From the NCBI GenBank assembly GCA_963665095.1, contig OY762069.1, positions 5,312,001-5,376,000 on the forward strand: a stretch of 64,000 nucleotides of DNA, in the 5' to 3' direction. The notes below the pieces were generated by a model. It made no database searches. It was not told the DNA's origin and worked only from the letters and a program-made list of their open reading frames with translations. Below are positions 13,984-39,022 of this stretch, in pieces (the stretch's first letter is position 1; each line of letters opens with the position of its first letter). The position numbers and the translations under genes were made by a program. The stretch is from an uncultured Desulfobacter sp. (GTDB taxonomy: Bacteria > Desulfobacterota > Desulfobacteria > Desulfobacterales > Desulfobacteraceae).

Positions 13984-14080
13984 AATATTCTTGACGTAGT
14001 TCGTTGAATCATGACATTCGCAAAACAGCCCGGAAGGGGCTGTGGGGTCAATGAGCAAAATCGAGGCGTTTGGAGGTGTC

Positions 14081-14674
14081 ATGGCTGAGGATGATATGCT
14101 GGAAGAAATGGAGCGAGATGGATCCGGTAATTCTCCGGAACCGGGTGATGCAGCAGGTAAAAAAGGTTTCCTGGGCAAACTCATGTCGGGAAAGAAAAAG
14201 CTGATCATCATTATTCTGGCTGCTCTATTGTTTCTTGGCGGAACGGGAGCAGGGGTATATATCTTTTTTTTCGGTGGAGAAGAAGAACCTCCCCCTGAGC
14301 AGGCAACCGAAGAGACCGTCACTGAAGAGAGCATTCAGGCTGCTCTGGAAGAACAGAGCAAGGCTATTTTTGAGGATATTGTGATGTTGGAGCCCTTTGA
14401 GCAGATTGCCTTAAAAGCCGGGTCGTACATGCACTTTATCAGTCTGGGCATCAGTCTGGAAATGATGGATCCGGGATTCAGAAGGCAAGTGTATACCATG
14501 GAACCCAGGATCCGGAAAATTATTGAAAATCAGGTTCGGCAAATGAGTTGGGCAGACTTGAGATCCGCCAAAGGGAAACTTGAATTAAAATTTATGTTAT
14601 TAAGCCGGATAAACAACCTATTTCCCAAAGCAGCCATAAGACATATTTATTTTTCTAATTTTATAATGCAGTGA
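14081..14674 (+). CDS. fliL: Flagellar basal-body-associated protein FliL
   Basis: GGAGG RBS before ATG 14081; KKKLIIIILAALL TM segment; C-terminal GKLELK...INN...IYFSNFIMQ; upstream of fliM. Confidence 0.9.
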   Translation: MAEDDMLEEMERDGSGNSPEPGDAAGKKGFLGKLMSGKKKLIIIILAALLFLGGTGAGVYIFFFGGEEEPPPEQATEETVTEESIQAALEEQSKAIFEDIVMLEPFEQIALKAGSYMHFISLGISLEMMDPGFRRQVYTMEPRIRKIIENQVRQMSWADLRSAKGKLELKFMLLSRINNLFPKAAIRHIYFSNFIMQ

Positions 14675-14681
14675 TGGTGCC

Positions 14682-15680
14682 ATGAGTGAAATTCTATCCC
14701 AGGACGAGGTCGACAGTCTACTTGACGGACTGGATTCCGGAGAAGTAGAAACCGAGACTGATGTACCGGAGATTGTCGAAGAGCCGGTTGAAGGGGTTGT
14801 TGCCTATGATTTCACCAGTCAGGACAAGGTGGTCAGGGCAAGAATGCCCACCTTTGACGTGATTAATGAGCGCCTGTCCAGGGAAGTCCGGGCAACGTTG
14901 TCCTCTCTTTTGCAGACCAACGTGGATGTTTCAGCCAACCCCTTTGATACCCTTAAATTTTCCGAGTTTGTCCGAAGTCTGCCAGTGCCCACCAGTCTGC
15001 ACGTATTCAGGATGGAGCCCTTAAGGGGGCATGGGCTGGTGGTATTTGAAAGCCAGTTGGTCTACAACCTGATAGACACCTTTTTTGGTGGAGAAGCCCT
15101 GGGCAAGGCCCGGGTGGAAGGCCGGGAATTTACCACCATTGAAGAGGTAATGATAAAAAAAGCCGTGGTGGCAGTGCTTAAGAATATCGAGGCCTCCTGG
15201 GTTCCAATAGAGCCGGTCAAGGCATCATTGATCCGGTCGGAGATGAATCCGCAGTTCACGGCCATTGTTCTGCCCACAGATCTGGTTATCGTCACCCGGT
15301 TTGAGATCGAACTGGAGCAGTCTGCGGGCAACCTTGTAGTCTGCTATCCCTATTCCATGATTGAACCCATGCGCAACAAGCTCTCCTCCGGTGTCCAGGC
15401 TGAAATTGAAGAGATTGATTACAACTGGCGGCGGATGATTGAAGATGTGATTGTCAATTCCGATGTTGAGTTAAGAATTCTTCTGGGGAAAACCGAGATT
15501 ACCGGTGAAAAGCTTCTCTATATGCAGCCTGGGGATGTGATTCAGCTGGATAATGATGCATCTGAGCCATTGCCCTGTTTTATCGGCGGGCTGGTGAAAC
15601 TGACAGGTTTCATCGGTGTTCAAAGGGGATTTCAGGCATTTAAAATCAAAGATAAAATTATAACTGATTGTGAGGGATAG
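14682..15680 (+). CDS. fliM: Flagellar motor switch protein FliM
   Basis: MSEILSQDEVDSLL N-terminus, YDF, GREFTTIE, RSEMNPQF. Confidence 0.97.
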   Translation: MSEILSQDEVDSLLDGLDSGEVETETDVPEIVEEPVEGVVAYDFTSQDKVVRARMPTFDVINERLSREVRATLSSLLQTNVDVSANPFDTLKFSEFVRSLPVPTSLHVFRMEPLRGHGLVVFESQLVYNLIDTFFGGEALGKARVEGREFTTIEEVMIKKAVVAVLKNIEASWVPIEPVKASLIRSEMNPQFTAIVLPTDLVIVTRFEIELEQSAGNLVVCYPYSMIEPMRNKLSSGVQAEIEEIDYNWRRMIEDVIVNSDVELRILLGKTEITGEKLLYMQPGDVIQLDNDASEPLPCFIGGLVKLTGFIGVQRGFQAFKIKDKIITDCEG

Positions 15681-22663: not shown

Positions 22664-23557
22664 GTGGACCAGGCAAAAGGACTGCGGCAGATGGCCAGAA
22701 CAAACGCCACACAGCGACGGAAAAAGGGCCCGGCCCCGGGGTCGGACAGCTACCCTAAAGTCATTGCCGTCACCTCCGGCAAGGGCGGGGTAGGCAAAAC
22801 CAATATCGTGGGAAACCTGGCCGTTGCCATGACCCGGCTGGGTAAGCGGGTTGTGGTTATAGATGCGGATGTGGGGCTGGCAAATATTGATATTGTTTTC
22901 AACTTAAGACCCCGGTACAATATTCGGCATCTCATTTCCGGGGAAAAAACACTGGCGGAAGTGATGGTGACAACAACCCATGGTATCCGTATCCTACCCG
23001 GGGGGTCAGGATTTGCCGACCTGACCCAGATGGGTGAAGGGGAAAAACTCACGCTTTTATCTGAGTTCGAGACCCTTTCTGATACCACAGATATCATCCT
23101 TCTGGATACCGGGGCCGGTATTTCATCCAACGTGCTTTATTTTAATGCGTCGTCGGACCAGTGTCTGGTGGTGGCTACTACCGAGCCTACCTCGATCACC
23201 GATGCCTATGCACTGATGAAGGTGATGTCCCAGAATTACAGTCTGAAACATTTTAAACTGGTGGTGAATATGGTGGAGAGCCAGGCCGAAGCCAAAAAGG
23301 TGTATAGCTCCCTGAGCAACGCCCTGGATAAGTTTTTAAAGAATGTGGTGCTTGAATATGCCGGATTTGTTCCCTTTGATACGGCACTGCAGAAAGCTGT
23401 TCGAAACAGAAGTATCCTTTTGGATGAAGTGGACGGCGGCCCTGCCGCAGATGCCATGACAAGGCTTGCCCGGCATTTTGTCAATGACAGCCGGACAACC
23501 CAGAACCAGGGGAATTTAAGTTTTTTTATGAACAGGGTATTTGCAGCCGCCCAATAG
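22664..23557 (+). CDS. flhG: MinD-like ATPase FlhG (FleN)
   Basis: DQAKGLR N-terminus, VTSGKGGVGKT, EPTSITDAYA. Confidence 0.95.
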   Translation: MDQAKGLRQMARTNATQRRKKGPAPGSDSYPKVIAVTSGKGGVGKTNIVGNLAVAMTRLGKRVVVIDADVGLANIDIVFNLRPRYNIRHLISGEKTLAEVMVTTTHGIRILPGGSGFADLTQMGEGEKLTLLSEFETLSDTTDIILLDTGAGISSNVLYFNASSDQCLVVATTEPTSITDAYALMKVMSQNYSLKHFKLVVNMVESQAEAKKVYSSLSNALDKFLKNVVLEYAGFVPFDTALQKAVRNRSILLDEVDGGPAADAMTRLARHFVNDSRTTQNQGNLSFFMNRVFAAAQ

Positions 23558-23568
23558 GAAACCAATTC

Positions 23569-24315
23569 ATGGAATACCCGCAGATAAAAAGCCGTAAAGA
23601 ATGGGAAGCCTGGCGGCAGGAGTGTATCGTCAATTATGCTTATCTGGTCAAGTACATCGCCTCCCGCTTTGCCATGCGTCTGCCTTCCAGCGTGCTTTTT
23701 GATGAACTGATGTCGGCGGGGTCTCTCGGACTTATTGATGCCGTGGATAAATTTGATCCCGGCAAGCATGTCAGTCTTGAAACCTATGCCCGGTATCGAA
23801 TCAAGGGTGCCATCCTTGATGAACTGCGCAGCATGGATACCTATTCCCGGTCCATGCGCAAAAAAATTCAGGATATCTCCAAGGCGGCAAAGACCATTGA
23901 GGACGAGAAAGGCAGGCCTGCAGAGGAAGACGAGATCTGCAATGTTCTGGGTGTGGACCTGGAAACTTACCATAATATGCTCACTGATATCCATGGGGCT
24001 GCCGTCTTAAGTCTGGATGATTTCATTAAAACCAAAAAGAACGATGCCTATTCACAGACCCGGTTTCAATCCGGACTTAAAGGAGATGAAAACCCTGAAG
24101 ATGATTTCAATCGGGCGGAGCTGAAGTCGGTATTGGCAGATGCCATCAAAAAATTGACGGAAAAAGAGCAGATTGTCGTGTCACTTTACTATTATGATGA
24201 ACTCACCCTGAAAGAGATCGGCGAAGTTTTGTCTTTAACGGAATCCCGCATTTGCCAGATTCATACGGCGGTTCTTCTGAAATTGCGGACCCGGCTTGAA
24301 AGTTATGGAAGATAA
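23569..24315 (+). CDS. fliA: RNA polymerase sigma28 factor FliA
   Basis: LVKYIA...GLIDAVDKFD...RIKGAILDELR; LYYYDELTLKEIGEVLSLTESRICQIH. Confidence 0.96.
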   Translation: MEYPQIKSRKEWEAWRQECIVNYAYLVKYIASRFAMRLPSSVLFDELMSAGSLGLIDAVDKFDPGKHVSLETYARYRIKGAILDELRSMDTYSRSMRKKIQDISKAAKTIEDEKGRPAEEDEICNVLGVDLETYHNMLTDIHGAAVLSLDDFIKTKKNDAYSQTRFQSGLKGDENPEDDFNRAELKSVLADAIKKLTEKEQIVVSLYYYDELTLKEIGEVLSLTESRICQIHTAVLLKLRTRLESYGR

Positions 24316-24409: not shown

Positions 24410-26143
24410 ATGTCAGACCCGGTTGCAGAAGAAGACGATCTAATATCCCAGGACGATATTGACAAACTGTTGGATATGGGGGACGACGATGCGGGCGAAC
24501 TCTCCCAGGACGATATTGACAGCCTTCTCAACGGGCCTTCTCCGGATGAGGATGCTGCCGGAGAACTGTCCCAGGATGACATCGACCGGATGATGGCGGG
24601 CAGTGCGCCGGAACCGGAGGCGGCAGCGGAAGAGGAGGACGCCGGGGAGCTCTCTCAGGACGACATAGACCGCATGATGAGCGGTAATACATTGGGCGGG
24701 GATGACGATCAGGAGGATGAAGACCTTGAACTCATTTCCCAGGATGATATTGACCGGCTCATGAATGATTCTTCAGATGAAGATCCTGATGATGACGATG
24801 ACGAGATGATTTCCCTGGAGGATATTCAGAGTGTGATGGTCGATGATGATAAAGGCGATAACACCCCTGACGCGGCTGAGTCAGACCCTGGTCCTGACAC
24901 CGGGACAATGGAAAGTGCCGATACCCCGGAAGATATTGGCGCATCCCCAGAGCAAATGGAAACAGAATCAGTGCAGGAAGAGCCAGAACAGGAAGAGCCA
25001 GAACAGACAGAGCCAGAACAGACAGATGATGGGACAGCCGGTTCTGAGGCCGAAGAAGTTCCTTATGATCCCTGGGATGAGCCTATTGATGAAGGGCAGG
25101 CCATGGATGTATCCGACTGCATGATTGCCCAGGAAACCATGGACGCTCTGATTGAGGCGGGCGTGATCAGCCCGGATACACCGGCAGAAGATGCCGGGGA
25201 TGCCGGGGGAGAGCCGGAACCGGCAGATTCTGGTGATGAAGATTTGTCTTCCAATGACGATCTTTTGGACGGTTTGGACCTGATGTCAGCAACAGATGAC
25301 GCTGAGGATGATGTCACCCAGGAAGATATAGACGCCCTGCTGCAGGGGGGCGATGAAGAGGATGATTTCCTGGATGAGGATGAGGATATCCTTATTTCCC
25401 AGGATGATATTGATACCCTGCTTATGGCTGCAGATCAGGAAGATGAGGATGTCCTCGGTGACCTTTCAGGCGAGGATGACGACACATCAGAACCCCGGGA
25501 TGCCCTTGATGATGAGCTGGAAGCTGAAGATTCGGATCAGGTCGTTTTGGAAGGGATTGAAGGCGCTGAAATTCCGGAAAGGGATGACCGGAAACCCAAA
25601 GGTCCGTCAGCCGGCAAGAGAATCAAGGCCCTGCTCAGTTCAAAAGTAATGCTGGCTGCGGCTTCCGTTCTTTTATTCATGGGAATATCCGTCCCCATAA
25701 GCTATTTTCTGTTTTTTTCCAGTGATCCGGTGCCGCTTCCTGAAAAACAGTCCGGATCCCTGACGGATATTGACCTTGGGCGGGACGTTCCTTTGGCCCG
25801 TTCCGGCCTTGAAGACACGGTGATGCCGGCCACCCGCCGGTCCGGAACCATTCTTTTACCCAATTTTATTATCCTTGCCTCGGATCAGAGTAAAACCATG
25901 ACCTATGTTTATGCAGATGTCTCTATTGATTATTCGGATCAGAGAGCCTATGATGAAATTAGTAATAATCTTGCTTTTTACCGGGATTTGATCTATGGGG
26001 CGATTCAGGCCCGGCTGGTGTCGGAAAAGAACAACGAAGTAACCAAGGCCGATCTGCTGTGGGACGTGGAAACCTCCCTGAAAAAAGTGCTGCCGCCCCA
26101 TTATTTTGACAGGATCACGTTTAAAACCTTTAAAGCCACTTAA
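24410..26143 (+). CDS. Acidic repeat protein (about 9 xSQDDIDxLL-type motifs) with a TM segment and C-terminal FliL-like domain
   Basis: Repeated ELSQDDID motifs; TM KVMLAAASVLLFMGISVPISYFLFF; C-terminal LPNFII...YRDLIY...ITFKTF resembles the FliL periplasmic domain. Confidence 0.75.
   Translation: MSDPVAEEDDLISQDDIDKLLDMGDDDAGELSQDDIDSLLNGPSPDEDAAGELSQDDIDRMMAGSAPEPEAAAEEEDAGELSQDDIDRMMSGNTLGGDDDQEDEDLELISQDDIDRLMNDSSDEDPDDDDDEMISLEDIQSVMVDDDKGDNTPDAAESDPGPDTGTMESADTPEDIGASPEQMETESVQEEPEQEEPEQTEPEQTDDGTAGSEAEEVPYDPWDEPIDEGQAMDVSDCMIAQETMDALIEAGVISPDTPAEDAGDAGGEPEPADSGDEDLSSNDDLLDGLDLMSATDDAEDDVTQEDIDALLQGGDEEDDFLDEDEDILISQDDIDTLLMAADQEDEDVLGDLSGEDDDTSEPRDALDDELEAEDSDQVVLEGIEGAEIPERDDRKPKGPSAGKRIKALLSSKVMLAAASVLLFMGISVPISYFLFFSSDPVPLPEKQSGSLTDIDLGRDVPLARSGLEDTVMPATRRSGTILLPNFIILASDQSKTMTYVYADVSIDYSDQRAYDEISNNLAFYRDLIYGAIQARLVSEKNNEVTKADLLWDVETSLKKVLPPHYFDRITFKTFKAT
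24974..25024 (+). repeat. In-frame 15-bp tandem repeat (about 3.4 copies) encoding QEEPE/QTEPE
   Basis: caggaagagccagaa x2, cagacagagccagaa, cagaca. Confidence 0.85.
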
Positions 26144-26157
26144 TAAAGGTGATATTG

Positions 26158-26460
26158 ATGACCACTGTGCATGGACATAACCAGATTTTTCAGCAATCCG
26201 GTCTTGCCCAGGAGTTGAACCACCAGATCCATTCGCCCAAGCCGGATCCGAGTCAGGCTGCGGTTCAGCAGCAGGATCAGCAGGTGGTTGAAAACACAAC
26301 GGTCCAGGGCAGCGAAGATACGGTAGCCTTGAAACAGGAAAAAGAGAAAGAAAAAAAGAAGAAAGAACGCCAACTCAGAAAGGCTAAAGCCCGGAACCCT
26401 GAAAACGATCTGCCGTCGGATCCTGATGCTCCGGGCCGGCTTCTGGACACCACTGCATGA
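26158..26460 (+). CDS. Small hypothetical protein with C-terminal GRLLDTTA tail
   Basis: AAAGGTG RBS; co-oriented, with stop/start overlap to the next gene; Q-rich then K/E-rich. Confidence 0.6.
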   Translation: MTTVHGHNQIFQQSGLAQELNHQIHSPKPDPSQAAVQQQDQQVVENTTVQGSEDTVALKQEKEKEKKKKERQLRKAKARNPENDLPSDPDAPGRLLDTTA

Positions 26461-27056
26461 ATCTGCCTGTTCCCGTTGAATTTCTGGTTGTTCTCTCTTT
26501 AATCTTAGACCTGTTTCTTATTTTTTTGCTGTTTCTTTTTGTCCGCCGTGCCGGACGCCTGCAGGCTGCTGTCTGTCATGAGCAGGAACCGGACTTTGAA
26601 CAGATAGCCGACACGGTGCAAAAGGAAGCTCAAGTTGCTGCCAAAGAGGCACTTACCAAGGCCTCAGGAATGATTGAACCGGTATTGCAGGCGTCAAAAG
26701 AGGCGGCAGAGGAGTTTGAACGCCTGGTGAAGGAAAAACAGCAGCTGACCCGGAAACTGGACCACTCTCTTGATTCAAAGCTGATCAGTATTAACCTGCT
26801 TTTGTCCAGGGCCAACACGCTTTACAATCAGCTTGAAAATCAGCACAACAGCATTTTAAATACCCACCCTCAACGTTCGCCGTCCTTGTTTCACAAAGAG
26901 AAAGACGTCATTGATCAGCAGCAGCAGATAATAGACCTTTACTACCGAAAGGTGGATATTGATTCCATTGCAGAAAAGCTTTCCATTCCAAAAGGAGAGG
27001 TGCAGCTTGTCATTGACCTCAAGGAAAAGTTTATTGCAATGGAGAACGCCAGATGA
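26457..27056 (+). CDS. Membrane-anchored coiled-coil protein with C-terminal HTH-like tail (DUF2802-like)
   Basis: N-terminal TM; C-terminal IDSIAEKLSIPKGEVQLVI matches the DUF2802/DUF6115-type tail. Confidence 0.65.
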   Translation: MNLPVPVEFLVVLSLILDLFLIFLLFLFVRRAGRLQAAVCHEQEPDFEQIADTVQKEAQVAAKEALTKASGMIEPVLQASKEAAEEFERLVKEKQQLTRKLDHSLDSKLISINLLLSRANTLYNQLENQHNSILNTHPQRSPSLFHKEKDVIDQQQQIIDLYYRKVDIDSIAEKLSIPKGEVQLVIDLKEKFIAMENAR

Positions 27057-34777: not shown

Positions 34778-37700
34778 ATGGCCGGCCTGTCATCCACCCT
34801 TAATATTGCCAAAATGGGCCTAAGCGCCCAGCAGTACGGACTCAATGTTACGGGTAACAATATTGCCAATGTAAATAATGAGGATTACAGCCTTCAAAAT
34901 GCCGATCACACCACTACAGGGACCATGTCCTATGGCGGACACCTGCTTGGCACCGGCGTGGATGTGGAGCAGGTGGAGCAGCAGGTGGATCAGCTTCTGG
35001 AAAACCGGCTCACCGGCGAAACCTCAACCCTGGCGGCCCTGGAAGAGGCAGAGTCCTATGTTACTATTCTTGAAGGATATTTTGATGAAAGTTCGGATTC
35101 CAGCCTTACGTCTGTGCTCAGTGAGTTCTGGAATGCCTGGCATGATCTGGCTGACAATCCCATCGGATCTGCGGAACGCGGCCTTGTCTATGAGCAGGCC
35201 CAGCTGCTGGCCGACCGCTTCAATACCATTGCCGAAGATCTTGACAGTCTGACCCAGGATCTGACCAACGAGATCTCTTCCACGGTGGCAGATGTTAACA
35301 CCCTGGCTGAAGAGATTGCCCGGCTCAATTACGAAATAAAGAAGATTGAATCCAGCGGCACCGCCAATGACCTGAGGGACCAGAGAAATGCACTCATTGA
35401 TGAGCTGGCGCAGCTGGTCAATGTGGATATTATCCAGGAGGGTGACGGGGACCTGATTATTAATGTGGCCAACGGAGCCCCTCTGGTCAACGGAATCAAT
35501 GCCTACAGCCTCTCCATGGACCAGGGTCAGGTGATGTGGCAGGGATCATCCGGGTATGAAATGGACATCACTGATGATATCTCCGGAGGCAAACTGTGCG
35601 GCTGGCTGGATATCCGGGATCAAACTATTCCTAAATACAGAGCAGAGATAGATGAGCTGGCATCGGAGATGATATGGGCCATTAATTACCAGCAGTCCCA
35701 GGGTGTGGGGCTGACCTATTACACGGGCACGCTCACCGGGGCCTATTCCGTGGACGACTCGGGATGGCTCTCTTCATACGATTTTGGCAATAAAATTAAT
35801 TACGACGGCGATGTCACCGTGTGGATACAGGACACGTCTGAAGCTGAAACCGCCTTCCGGCAAATTATGGTGGACATGGGCATCTCCTCGGCAGACACCA
35901 CTGACTGGAGGGGCATCGAACCCGGCGGCGACCAGGCGAGCTATGAACTTACTGTGGTGGATGCAGGGGATGTGGGGGATAAAACCGTATCCCAGACCAG
36001 CGGTGACTATCTGGCTCAGATCATCAGCACCACTTCCGGCGGGGCCACTTCTGCCATTGACAATATCCTGGCCGAGCAGACCATTTCCTTTTACAACACC
36101 TCCACGGGGACCCAGACCATTAAAGTGGCTGATTCCAACGGGGATGCCAAGCGGTCGGCCGCTGATATTGCCGAAGCCATGAACGCCATTGACGGGGTGG
36201 AGGCGTATGCATCTGTCAACTCCGTGGAGTTTGATATCTCAGGGATTGCCGGCACTGCAGATGACGGGGATGAGGTGAAGTATTCCCTGTATGTGGACGG
36301 CATTGTGTATGAGCAAAGTTTTATTGTGGATTCAGGCGTTGGTACCCTGGCTGAACAGTTTGAAGACTCCCTGGTGGATGCGGCCCAGGCTCTTAATGAC
36401 CTGAATGAGGACACAGACCTCTATGCCGACGGCCTTGTTATTACAAGCGATAAGGGCGCTACCCTGGGCATCCAGGATTTTGAAGTCCAGGATAACGCCG
36501 GAATTCAGCTGGATACCTTTACCAATTTTAATAACACCGATATCGTCACCTGGACCATTACCACAGACGGAGTGCCCACCACCAATACAGATATCAGTGT
36601 GGATCTGACCAATGTCAATGATGCCACAGACCAGGGCGAAATGGCCTCTGTCTTTTACAGTGCCCTGGCCGGTGCCCTTGATGAAGATACCTTTTCAGTG
36701 ACGCTGGATTCCGATAACAATGCCGTGATTATCCGTACCCTTGACGGATCCAATATCACCCTGCAGGCAGCCGGTAATGACACCGGGGATGATGCCACAG
36801 TGAATCTGACCAACCTTGCAGGCACCGGGGCTGCGTCCGGCAACAGCATCCTTGATTTCAACGCCGGGGCCAGTGATGTGGAAATTTTTGATTCCATCAC
36901 AACATCGGCCGCCACCCTTGGTTTTTCCATTCCGGGGTCCGGGTCCACGGCCATGGCCGGCACCACCTCCGTGATTACGGAAATTTCTTATACCGGGGCC
37001 GGTGCCACCACCGCTGCAGCCATCATGTCCACCATCACTATCCTGACAGATGAGGGCATTACCATTAAATCCAATTCCCGGGATGCCCTGGGGCTTTTCG
37101 GCTCCTCAGGCGTGGCCACCACCGGCAGTTCCATTATGACCCTGGGGGGCGAAGACGGATTTGAGGGCTTTGATGCCGGAGACACCATTACATTTGAGGT
37201 GGACGGCAACCTTGTGGACATCACCGTATCCACAGCTGCCGGAGCCACCACCGATTATGCCCTGGCAGGGTTGCTGATGACGGAGCTGTCCGCGGACCTG
37301 GCAGGCTTGCCCTACACCATTGTGCGGAACGGCAATTCCGTTTCCATTATCAAAGACACGGACGAGGAAGACCCCATTGCCATTACCGGATTTACGGACG
37401 CCACCACTGCCGATGCCATATTGTCTGTTTCTACGGGCACGGGCACCGGTACCGAGGACCCTGATAACGGGCAACTGGAATCCGGCAATGAATACAGAGA
37501 TTTTTCCACCTCATCCCTGTACGATGACGAGGCGGTAATCTACTGGCAGAAACGGGGTATAGACGGGCTTTATACCGGCGAGTCAGGGCTGGTCACCGTC
37601 TCGAATGAGGGCTTGGTGGAAATAGTGGAAAGCGGGGTGACCACACTCTCCTTTGAAATTTCCGGCGGCAGCCTTGTGGCGGGGAATACACTTACCGTCA

Positions 37701-39022
37701 ACACCGATGAAAACGGGGAAGTAGATCCCCTGGATTTCACCATCACCAATACCGCCAACAGCGTGAATGATATCTATACCTTTGAGGTGGTCTCCGGCGG
37801 CACCGTCGGGCATGTGGGAGAAGAGGACCTGGTGATTCAGTGGTCCAATTCTGTTTCTTCGGGCACCTTTGTTATTGAGGGGGATGATCCCCCCAAAACT
37901 CCGGCATCTCCGGTGGAGGTGACCGTGGACGGCATGACCTTAAGTTTTTATGACGGCACCCTGTTTACAGGGGATGTCTTCACCATCACCACGGATGAGA
38001 CCGGCACGCCTCTGTCCACCAATGAAAATGGAAAGTATACCGGTGAAACCATGTCAGACTGGCACTGGACCCTGGATTCCTTTGTGGATCAGTTTAACAG
38101 GGATGCCGGCGGGCTTACTGCCACGGTCAATGGCCAGAATCAGCTGGAGATTTCGGCTTCTGATGATTATCACGTGATTGAGGATATGATCTATTCAGGT
38201 TCAAACGGATTCAGTGCGGATAATGTCTCCATGGAAGTCCTTAATTATGCGGCCCTGGATTTTTCCGCCTATGACTTTACGTTTATCCGCGACGACGACG
38301 GCTCCTGGGGGATTTTGAATGATGCCACCGGCGGAGTAGCCCAGATTATTCCTGAAGGGGGAAACGACAGCGAATTTGAGGTGGACCTGAATGGCGACGG
38401 GATCGGGGATCTGAAGATAGAATTTTCCAAGGATGTTTACGGAGAAGGCTATATTCAGTTTGACCTGGTGGCCAGAGACGCCTCTGATATCGGCTTTGCC
38501 TGTGGAGATGACAGTGCCACTGCATCAGGATTGTTGGCTGCTGCCGGTATCAACACCTTTTACGAAGGGGCGGATGCGTCCGGAATGACGGTCAATACAC
38601 TGATGGCAAACACCAACTATATTGCCGCAGGGGTTATTGACAGCGAAACCGGGGAGATCACAGAAGGGGATAACAGTAACGCCACAGCCTTTGCCGATCT
38701 TCAGTACGAATCTTTGACCATGAAAGAGTGGACCTATGTCAGAGGGTCGGAAGCGATGTCCAGCCTCACCGAGGCAACCCTGGATGAGTATTACCAGACC
38801 ATGATCGCTGCTTTAGGGCTTGAGTCCAGCGCCATTCAGGGCTCCAGAGAGTTTGCCAAGCTTATGGTGGAGCAGCTTACCGAACAGCGAAATGCCGTGT
38901 CTGCGGTATCCCTGGATGAAGAGATGGTGAACCTGATCAAATACCAGCAGGCCTATTCTGCAGCATCAAAGTTGCTGACAACCGCAGATGAGATGCTCGA
39001 TACCCTGCTGTCCATAAGGTAG
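34778..39022 (+). CDS. flgK: Hook-filament junction protein FlgK, giant (1414 aa)
   Basis: LNVTGNNIANVN, NDLRDQRNALIDELA, SAVSLDEEMVNLIKYQQAYSAASK. Confidence 0.95.
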   Translation: MAGLSSTLNIAKMGLSAQQYGLNVTGNNIANVNNEDYSLQNADHTTTGTMSYGGHLLGTGVDVEQVEQQVDQLLENRLTGETSTLAALEEAESYVTILEGYFDESSDSSLTSVLSEFWNAWHDLADNPIGSAERGLVYEQAQLLADRFNTIAEDLDSLTQDLTNEISSTVADVNTLAEEIARLNYEIKKIESSGTANDLRDQRNALIDELAQLVNVDIIQEGDGDLIINVANGAPLVNGINAYSLSMDQGQVMWQGSSGYEMDITDDISGGKLCGWLDIRDQTIPKYRAEIDELASEMIWAINYQQSQGVGLTYYTGTLTGAYSVDDSGWLSSYDFGNKINYDGDVTVWIQDTSEAETAFRQIMVDMGISSADTTDWRGIEPGGDQASYELTVVDAGDVGDKTVSQTSGDYLAQIISTTSGGATSAIDNILAEQTISFYNTSTGTQTIKVADSNGDAKRSAADIAEAMNAIDGVEAYASVNSVEFDISGIAGTADDGDEVKYSLYVDGIVYEQSFIVDSGVGTLAEQFEDSLVDAAQALNDLNEDTDLYADGLVITSDKGATLGIQDFEVQDNAGIQLDTFTNFNNTDIVTWTITTDGVPTTNTDISVDLTNVNDATDQGEMASVFYSALAGALDEDTFSVTLDSDNNAVIIRTLDGSNITLQAAGNDTGDDATVNLTNLAGTGAASGNSILDFNAGASDVEIFDSITTSAATLGFSIPGSGSTAMAGTTSVITEISYTGAGATTAAAIMSTITILTDEGITIKSNSRDALGLFGSSGVATTGSSIMTLGGEDGFEGFDAGDTITFEVDGNLVDITVSTAAGATTDYALAGLLMTELSADLAGLPYTIVRNGNSVSIIKDTDEEDPIAITGFTDATTADAILSVSTGTGTGTEDPDNGQLESGNEYRDFSTSSLYDDEAVIYWQKRGIDGLYTGESGLVTVSNEGLVEIVESGVTTLSFEISGGSLVAGNTLTVNTDENGEVDPLDFTITNTANSVNDIYTFEVVSGGTVGHVGEEDLVIQWSNSVSSGTFVIEGDDPPKTPASPVEVTVDGMTLSFYDGTLFTGDVFTITTDETGTPLSTNENGKYTGETMSDWHWTLDSFVDQFNRDAGGLTATVNGQNQLEISASDDYHVIEDMIYSGSNGFSADNVSMEVLNYAALDFSAYDFTFIRDDDGSWGILNDATGGVAQIIPEGGNDSEFEVDLNGDGIGDLKIEFSKDVYGEGYIQFDLVARDASDIGFACGDDSATASGLLAAAGINTFYEGADASGMTVNTLMANTNYIAAGVIDSETGEITEGDNSNATAFADLQYESLTMKEWTYVRGSEAMSSLTEATLDEYYQTMIAALGLESSAIQGSREFAKLMVEQLTEQRNAVSAVSLDEEMVNLIKYQQAYSAASKLLTTADEMLDTLLSIR

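Follow-up and report, generated by a model that had tools for sequence, protein, structure and literature searches.

The N-terminal peptide of the flagellar switch protein FliM and the C-terminal peptide of CheZ both sit on the alpha4-beta5-alpha5 face of CheY, and docking peptides for phosphorylated CheY (CheY-P) are known as single copies, carried either by the switch (FliM, FliY) or by phosphatases (CheZ). The EIDAL motif of FliM binds CheY-P (10.1101/2022.04.21.489128), and the C-terminus of CheZ is described as its CheY-P-binding region (PMC7750401). The EIDAL motif is also reported to bind FlhG in S. putrefaciens (10.1101/2022.04.21.489128) and, in Shewanella, to be necessary and sufficient for FlhG binding (as cited in 10.1101/2022.04.21.489128); passages of two further reports concur on the contacts of FlhG with FliM or FliY and of CheY with EIDAL (PMC12826062; PMC6946799). 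Among FliL-like proteins, MotF of S. meliloti is a second family member beside the canonical one and a precedent for FliL paralogues that bind each other and the stator (PMC9541039). Here, we analyzed a stretch of 64,000 nucleotides from an uncultured Desulfobacter sp. (assembly GCA_963665095.1, contig OY762069.1, positions 5,312,001 to 5,376,000; henceforth the window, to whose numbering positions refer unless another contig or locus is named). It encodes, in a single open reading frame (24410..26143, plus strand, as are all features whose coordinates are joined by two dots below), a protein of 577 amino acids (aa), here called X, in which an acidic tail with an array of FliM-like motifs precedes one membrane helix and a FliL-fold domain. 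We conclude that X is a real, conserved, and apparently undescribed variant. The first-pass annotation of this DNA knew of no described protein of this kind, and our literature searches, in which subscription journals were thinly covered, likewise gave no description of one. The reading that we favor, and to which we give about an even chance, is that X is a motor-anchored multivalent tether or buffer for CheY-P with seven docking peptides beside the switch.

The first-pass annotation listed nine peptides in X and spoke of about nine copies. All nine peptides are present where it had placed them, and the count resolves into seven clean copies of the strict pattern [ILV][ST]Q[DE]DIDx[LM][LM] plus two degenerate copies that match no motif on their own. 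The clean copies start at residues 12 (ISQDDIDKLL, 24443..24472), 31 (LSQDDIDSLL, 24500..24529, the copy nearest to the FliM N-terminus), 53 (LSQDDIDRMM, 24566..24595), 81 (LSQDDIDRMM, 24650..24679), 109 (ISQDDIDRLM, 24734..24763), 302 (VTQEDIDALL, 25313..25342), and 329 (ISQDDIDTLL, 25394..25423, followed by a conserved EDEDxLGD extension). With a scoring matrix derived solely from repeats of other families (231 in all), these seven reach 26–33 bits and the FliM N-terminus 23.5 bits; the 27.5 bits obtained for one histidine kinase in the same scoring we take as a chance match. The degenerate copies are ISLEDIQSVM at residue 134 (24809..24838; 1.5 bits) and IAQETMDALI at residue 239 (2.5 bits), the latter at the end of a central block, IDE..A.D..DC.I.QET.D.LI (25085..25153), that is conserved in Desulfobacteraceae and might bind another partner. 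Between the array and the membrane helix lies a juxtamembrane QVVLE box (25538..25552), and 39 of 49 motif-bearing orthologues have a similar box no more than 75 aa from their membrane helix. When residues 1–405 were shuffled, one strict copy appeared in 1 of 20,000 shuffles and two copies in none of 20,000. Among the 27,683 six-frame open reading frames of the 6.9-Mb genome, the strict pattern singled out X and FliM only, which bears out the proposed likeness to the N-terminus of the window's own FliM (LSQDEVDSLL, 14694..14723). The copies differ at synonymous codons, as had been noted, and because in addition the linkers between them are unalike, we rejected the explanation that the array is a DNA-repeat artefact.

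The array precedes a single hydrophobic segment, before which lie 412 residues. The segment peaks at residues 413–431 (25646..25702), in agreement with the one transmembrane segment proposed at about 25643–25720, and the predicted helix spans 25646..25717; the N-terminus of the protein is not hydrophobic. Seven Lys or Arg residues are found in the 20 residues preceding the segment and one after it, and an excess of these residues on the N-terminal side was seen in 52 of 57 orthologues (four equal, one reversed). In none of 56 orthologues do motifs lie C-terminal of the helix. Hydropathy and the positive-inside rule thus predict an N-in protein with its repeats in the cytoplasm rather than the periplasm, as the first-pass annotation had supposed. 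An AlphaFold model of X (19-row alignment, mean predicted local distance difference test 55.8) also contains the membrane helix; it draws all nine peptides as isolated short helices in a low-confidence chain and shows no folded cytoplasmic domain. Asp and Glu together make up 38.5% of residues 1–400, and an ESM Atlas search with residues 1–145 gave a best score of 0.80, which is at chance level.

The C-terminal domain (25841..26140, predicted periplasmic) has the FliL (SPFH-like) fold proposed for it. In structural comparisons with VIA-align and Foldseek, the model of this domain matched FliL of H. pylori (Z 11.6, root mean square deviation 2.5 A over 96 residues) and of Vibrio (Z 10.7), with the next fold at 7.6; ranks 1–10 of the Foldseek search were all FliL (best E 1.6e-4), and comparison of the domain profile with canonical FliL by hhalign gave 97.9% (E 4.6e-13). 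The domain scores 14.9 bits against Pfam FliL, below the cut-off of 24.6, and Pfam and NCBIfam searches with full-length X gave no meaningful hit and none for FliL; three motif-less X orthologues pass the Pfam FliL cut-off. X is therefore a FliL-fold paralogue and not canonical FliL: it shares with FliL (PF03748; 7sgn from H. pylori, 6ahq from Vibrio, 9hmf from C. jejuni) the fold, the predicted N-in helix, and a place in a flagellar cluster, but the canonical GK..LK stretch is replaced and the short canonical N-terminus gives way to a 400-residue acidic tail with the motif array. We rejected X as a canonical FliL equivalog because of its score and because its cytoplasmic N-terminus is not short. 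A role as a CheZ, CheC, or FliY phosphatase was rejected as well, since there is no such Pfam or NCBIfam hit and no folded cytoplasmic domain in the model. Canonical fliL is present as a gene of its own (14042..14674), located upstream of fliM. The genome also carries a third FliL-domain gene (G000:C1:6566623-6567510), which lies outside the flagellar clusters and encodes a 295-aa protein whose N-terminus is lipoprotein-like and which has an additional N-terminal domain. MotF resembles X in standing beside a canonical FliL; it belongs to a different lineage, and the passages of PMC9541039 on which we draw describe it without mention of a motif array.

To place the repeats among known docking peptides, we compared them with FliM and CheZ. 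Across 29 genomes, the FliM N-terminus follows L[ST]Q.EVD.LL; LxxxxVDxLL and the Glu are present in all 29 and the Gln in 28. The sole FliM without Gln (LSKDEVDSLL) comes from genome G508, a single case, which is 100% complete and has no match for CheY or CheW. By comparison, 349 repeats of the X family read [ILV][ST]QDDID.LL, where the Gln and the hydrophobic positions were preset by the search pattern, the Gln being also (nearly) invariant in an unbiased alignment. At the site of the invariant Glu of FliM, 81% of these repeats have Asp and 10% have Glu, and none of the seven clean copies of X has the FliM-type Glu. We therefore rejected the repeats as EIDAL motifs in the strict sense, because the invariant Glu before Ile/Val is mostly missing; by sequence and in the AlphaFold model, the copies of X do conform to the [LI][ST]Q..[IV]D.LL pattern and to the short-helix form. 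CheZ tails, which could be parsed at 16 of 18 loci, read Q..[IV]D.[LI]L in 16 of 16 and have Glu at the FliM-Glu site in none of 16. Those from seven array-bearing genomes read ISQ[EDK]NIDxLL, and tails from the same order include ISQENIDALL and LDQSDIDDLL, which supports the likeness to the CheZ C-terminal peptide that had been suggested. Three alpha-type CheZ proteins (P0090, P0092, P0094), retrieved with the repeat region, carry five tandem SQD[DA]IDx[LM]F copies on flexible linkers in their tails; X differs from CheZ in being membrane anchored and in lacking the CheZ catalytic bundle. With the FliM/FliY peptide, X shares the LSQ..[IV]D.LL core, and its minimal orthologues have one N-terminal copy, as FliM does. 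It departs from FliM in having Asp for Glu and Ile for the Val of this lineage and in family members with up to 16 copies, and whereas FliM and FliY are C-ring proteins, X is a membrane FliL with no CheC-like or SPOA domain. The Glu in question, E9, points away from CheY in Vibrio FliM and its change to Lys gives multiflagellate cells, while in Salmonella the E10G change in FliM lowers CheY activity (both in 10.1101/2022.04.21.489128). Because the repeats keep the core shared by FliM and CheZ and drop the Glu tied to flagellar number, their sequences lean modestly toward CheY-P as the ligand.

Named homologues of X come from Desulfobacter and its relatives, and all 84 proteins examined, X included, contain one to eight strict copies. 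The gene was found in 63 of 81 genomes in our sample of the family. It is present in 61 of the 64 genomes with a native-type FliM (the three without X are fragmented drafts, one of which, the 62nd, holds it partially at a contig end), in none of the six whose FliM is divergent (about 41% identity), and in two of the 11 without a FliM match, both fragmented. Thus, X tracks the native flagellar system. The six Desulfobacteraceae with divergent FliM and no X match are G011, G039, G049, G058, G061, and G066, of which the four tested all have CheZ; this pattern suggests that their flagellar system was replaced. In a sample of the class, the domain profile matched 79 of 251 genomes, partly via canonical FliL. 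An exhaustive search returned 234 representatives of X at E 0.001 or better, and of 140 newly listed ones 104 are Met-initiated and at least 200 aa long; 83 of these have two or more copies, 18 have one (some are truncated), and three have none. The shortest representatives are 226 aa long and have a single N-terminal copy.

We collected 56 orthologues, 19 from the same family and 37 from other families, the subset being picked for diversity. Between 1 and 16 copies occur in 49 of them, with a median spacing of 36 residues, and none in seven (in one case due to a sequence gap). Copy number differs within a genus, and G256 shows near-identical recent unit duplications. Old copies keep the peptide while their codons and linkers diverge, and the first, central, and last copies are position-specific variants conserved across genera. 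A quick tree was built from 106 columns of 61 FliL domains, with part of the family rows and five rows that were truncated or gapped excluded. In this tree, the 38 motif-bearing rows fall on one side of a branch with a Shimodaira–Hasegawa-like approximate likelihood ratio support of 98, which fits one gain of the array followed by expansion. Genome G515, whose truncated X was left out of the tree, combines a distant FliM with degenerate LSQEELDK copies and may be at odds with a single gain. In one single-contig genome (G045, locus L015), X is split into frames of 388 and 143 aa just past the membrane helix, by either a genuine frameshift or an error of sequencing.

The genome that encodes X contains CheW-containing systems and at least 150 receiver-domain matches. 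Among the latter, an enteric-type CheY (G000:C1:5155274-5155648; E about 1e-41 to 1e-43 against CheY of Vibrio, Salmonella, and E. coli) adjoins cheX in the second flagellar cluster, and cheX stands next to cheY in 15 of 20 loci. Both genes belong to a block upstream of flgB (G000:C1:5152724-5156715), conserved in Desulfobacterales, that further comprises a receiver+HD-type protein and a receiver-less sigma-54 activator. We found no match for CheZ or CheC in this genome, which is 97% complete. We then surveyed 56 chosen genomes for CheY and CheZ. Of 45 motif-bearing genomes, 42 gave a close CheY and 11 gave CheZ; the corresponding figures were 4 and 2 of 7 for motif-less genomes, and all 4 X-less genomes gave both. 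As the genomes are related and partly incomplete, these counts describe a trend and are not a test. The strict rule that the array replaces CheZ was rejected because of the 11 motif-bearing genomes with CheZ. No CheW match was obtained in G508 or G437, both motif-less, or in G007, which has two copies, while G514 and G506 do have one. A complex prediction with a CheY alignment and residues 5–45 of X (score 0.02, mark 0.32) weighs neither way.

Similar arrays also occur outside the X family. When 185,579 genomes were scanned for three QDDID units spaced 24–34 codons apart, 52 loci were obtained, namely 34 complete X genes, five X fragments, 12 unrelated proteins, and one unrelated repeat; the Aphanothece hit L230 was dropped because its repeat is different. 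The 12 unrelated proteins, whose labels rest on our reading of the sequences, come from Shewanella (1), Hyphomicrobiales (1), Nitrospinota/Nitrospirae (3), Planctomycetota (5), an unclassified bacterium (1), and Desulfovibrio (1). The Shewanella protein (L190:1641-5234) is HubP-type, has QDDIDNLL repeats, and is encoded between asd and truA, and the Desulfovibrio protein (L197:3009-4556), with QDDIDxLL repeats, is PopZ-like by eye; the two raise the question of whether HubP repeats are mimics of the FliM N-terminus. The Hyphomicrobiales protein (L192:2841-4160), a zinc-ribbon membrane protein that we take to be ZitP-like, has SQDDIDSLF copies and is encoded directly upstream of a single-domain response regulator, in a genome without a FlhG match. 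Of the three Nitrospinota/Nitrospirae proteins with a QDDIDA array (L217:1338-5273, L196:3-1454, L231:2982-3845), two have an N-terminal zinc ribbon and two a membrane helix plus a C-terminal domain; in hhalign this domain matches canonical FliL weakly (21%, E 0.001) and X at 4.7%, and these arrays are possibly a parallel invention. Six further loci (L198, L213, L218, L188, L193, L226) represent two uncharacterized families, mostly from Planctomycetota, with 7–9 QDDIDAL copies, one family having a membrane helix and a TPR-like end and the other a coiled coil. All 12 genomes with unrelated arrays have FliM and CheW, which is a raw co-occurrence count. Arrays of this kind therefore recur in flagellated chemotactic bacteria but also in polar scaffolds, which cuts both ways.

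Within the window, X directly follows fliA (23569..24315), as the first-pass annotation had it, and flhG/fleN (22664..23557) precedes fliA. The order flhF-flhG-fliA-X-fipA-like is conserved across loci of the sulfate-reducing Desulfobacterales wherever the contig extends far enough. The first-pass annotation had pointed out that cheY or cheZ often lies after fliA; in outgroup genome G097, whose X has no motif, the order is fliA-cheY-X, which we count as new support for its CheY-P reading. A scan of the gap between fliA and X for promoters and terminators found nothing. The conserved gene downstream of X encodes a membrane protein (26457..27056) that weakly resembles FipA: its matches to DUF2802 (E 0.03) and DUF6115 (E 2e-6) are both under the cut-off, and its position and architecture agree with FipA as described in PMC11620751. 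FipA is a partner of FlhF encoded after this operon in gammaproteobacteria, the only group for which the passages used here describe it (PMC11620751). The FipA-like gene is kept after X across Desulfobacterales and in G097. Between it and X lies a conserved small open reading frame (26149-26460, about 100 aa, starting MTT..G.N..IQQ), for which no family hit and no BLAST alignment with the G097 neighbor were obtained. Elsewhere in the window, a FlgK-like hook-associated protein (34778-39022) is unusually long at 1414 aa.

If X is a motor-anchored holder of CheY-P, its membrane helix and FliL domain would anchor it at the stator ring, by analogy with FliL and MotF, and each peptide would dock as a short helix against the alpha4-beta5-alpha5 face of the flagellar-cluster CheY in its phosphorylated form. 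Spaced by about 36 residues along a flexible tail, the copies would raise and buffer the local CheY-P and so shift the threshold or timing of switching. With neither CheZ nor CheC matched in the genome, the array may also present CheY-P to CheX, which is not known to have a tether of its own. Several observations weigh against this proposal. The localization of X at the motor is inferred from the modeled fold. G007 (80% complete) keeps two copies and has no CheY or CheW match; conversely, G544, G543, G431, and G097 have CheY and no motif, so that chemotaxis does not need the motif, and the motif-bearing genomes with CheZ mean that the array is not a plain replacement for CheZ. Copy number ranges from 1 to 16, look-alike arrays are carried by a HubP-type protein and by scaffolds encoded away from chemotaxis loci, and the co-occurrence of those arrays with FliM and CheW stands without a background rate. 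Finally, the same FliM peptide is reported to bind FlhG, and X follows flhF-flhG-fliA in all loci long enough to tell.

The last point leads to the main rival, in which the array is a multivalent tether for FlhG (FleN) that mimics the FliM N-terminus, holds FlhG at the pole or the basal body, and helps to limit flagellar number, sharing the job of HubP with the FipA-like neighbor. We consider this unlikely, though it deserves serious attention, as the FliM motif binds FlhG in S. putrefaciens (10.1101/2022.04.21.489128), FlhG binds FliM or FliY, and flhG lies two genes upstream of X, a point absent from the first-pass annotation, in a conserved order that includes the putative relative of the FlhF partner FipA. 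In addition, no match to the FimV C-terminal domain TIGR03504 was found in the genome, and the Shewanella HubP-type protein has QDDIDNLL repeats, HubP partners being reported to bind its acidic cytosolic part (PMC8789113). Against it, the Glu that is invariant in FliM is mostly Asp in the repeats (Glu to Asp is conservative, however, which leaves this a weak argument), the loci of motif-less orthologues also carry flhG, two of five unrelated-array genomes tested gave no FlhG match (three did; these are draft genomes searched with one query), and the part of V. cholerae HubP relevant to FlhG is its last ~200 residues, perhaps outside the repeats (10.1101/2022.04.21.489128). Binding of CheY-P and of FlhG is not exclusive, and the array could bind both.

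A more general alternative, which we regard as slightly less likely still, is that the tail is an acidic disordered polar scaffold of the HubP or PopZ sort whose helices bind each other, MotA, FliG/FliN, ParA-type ATPases, or other receiver domains, the likeness to the FliM N-terminus being convergence on a simple helix. The first-pass annotation had itself named a HubP/FimV-like scaffold as its alternative. Like HubP/FimV, X is single-pass with a large acidic repeat-rich cytoplasmic region, but HubP/FimV proteins have an N-terminal periplasmic LysM and a C-terminal FimV/TPR domain, both missing in X, and are encoded at asd-truA and not in a flagellar operon. Membership of X in that family thus fails on its reversed domain order, the absence of TIGR03504, and its FliL-fold C-terminus. 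Four Joint Genome Institute (JGI) entries, plus one fragment, do call X homologues "pilus assembly protein FimV", a name that acidic composition probably explains. The scaffold survives as a functional rival, since 12 of the 52 scan loci are unrelated scaffolds (HubP-type, ZitP-like, TPR, coiled-coil, PopZ-like) and the acidic part of polar scaffolds is reported to bind ParA-type partners (PMC8789113); the acidic tail modeled as disorder with isolated helices, the chance score of a histidine kinase, and the wealth of receiver domains fit it too. However, the S/T-Q cap and I-D-x-L-L show the same degree of conservation as in FliM and CheZ, beyond what a generic helix needs, X tracks the native flagellar system, and the minimal orthologues place their one copy at the N-terminus as FliM does. 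We give still less credence to the idea that only one or two copies are functional and the remainder are tolerated slippage products in an acidic linker, not a multivalent device. It would account for the variable copy number within a genus, for the recent duplications in G256, and for the single-copy representatives (18 of 104, some truncated), but old copies have kept the peptide while codons and linkers diverged, the first, central, and last variants are conserved across genera, and 83 of the 104 representatives have two or more copies.

Returning to CheY-P as the ligand, we propose tentatively, and with less confidence than the reading of X itself, that X is the first described case of a stator-anchored, non-catalytic multivalent CheY-P antenna and one instance of a wider, repeatedly evolved design. 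In this design, tandem docking helices of the FliM/CheZ kind would have been joined to the membrane or polar scaffolds of flagellated bacteria, namely to FliL paralogues, zinc-ribbon proteins, TPR proteins, and CheZ tails, and copy number would tune the local CheY-P.

The local CheY is close to that of E. coli, which makes both the CheY-P and the FlhG reading accessible to tests in that species and in vitro, and natural alleles with 0 to 16 copies provide a ready dose series. Were FlhG the partner, the array would explain how a lineage in which no HubP domain was found controls the number of its polar flagella. If instead X holds CheY-P, the cytoplasmic end of FliL, which is reported to modulate motor output (PMC10127578), would gain a concrete partner, and up to 16 docking peptides on a FliL-type protein would represent a new way of setting the sensitivity of the switch, through local concentration at the motor rather than through kinase or phosphatase rates.

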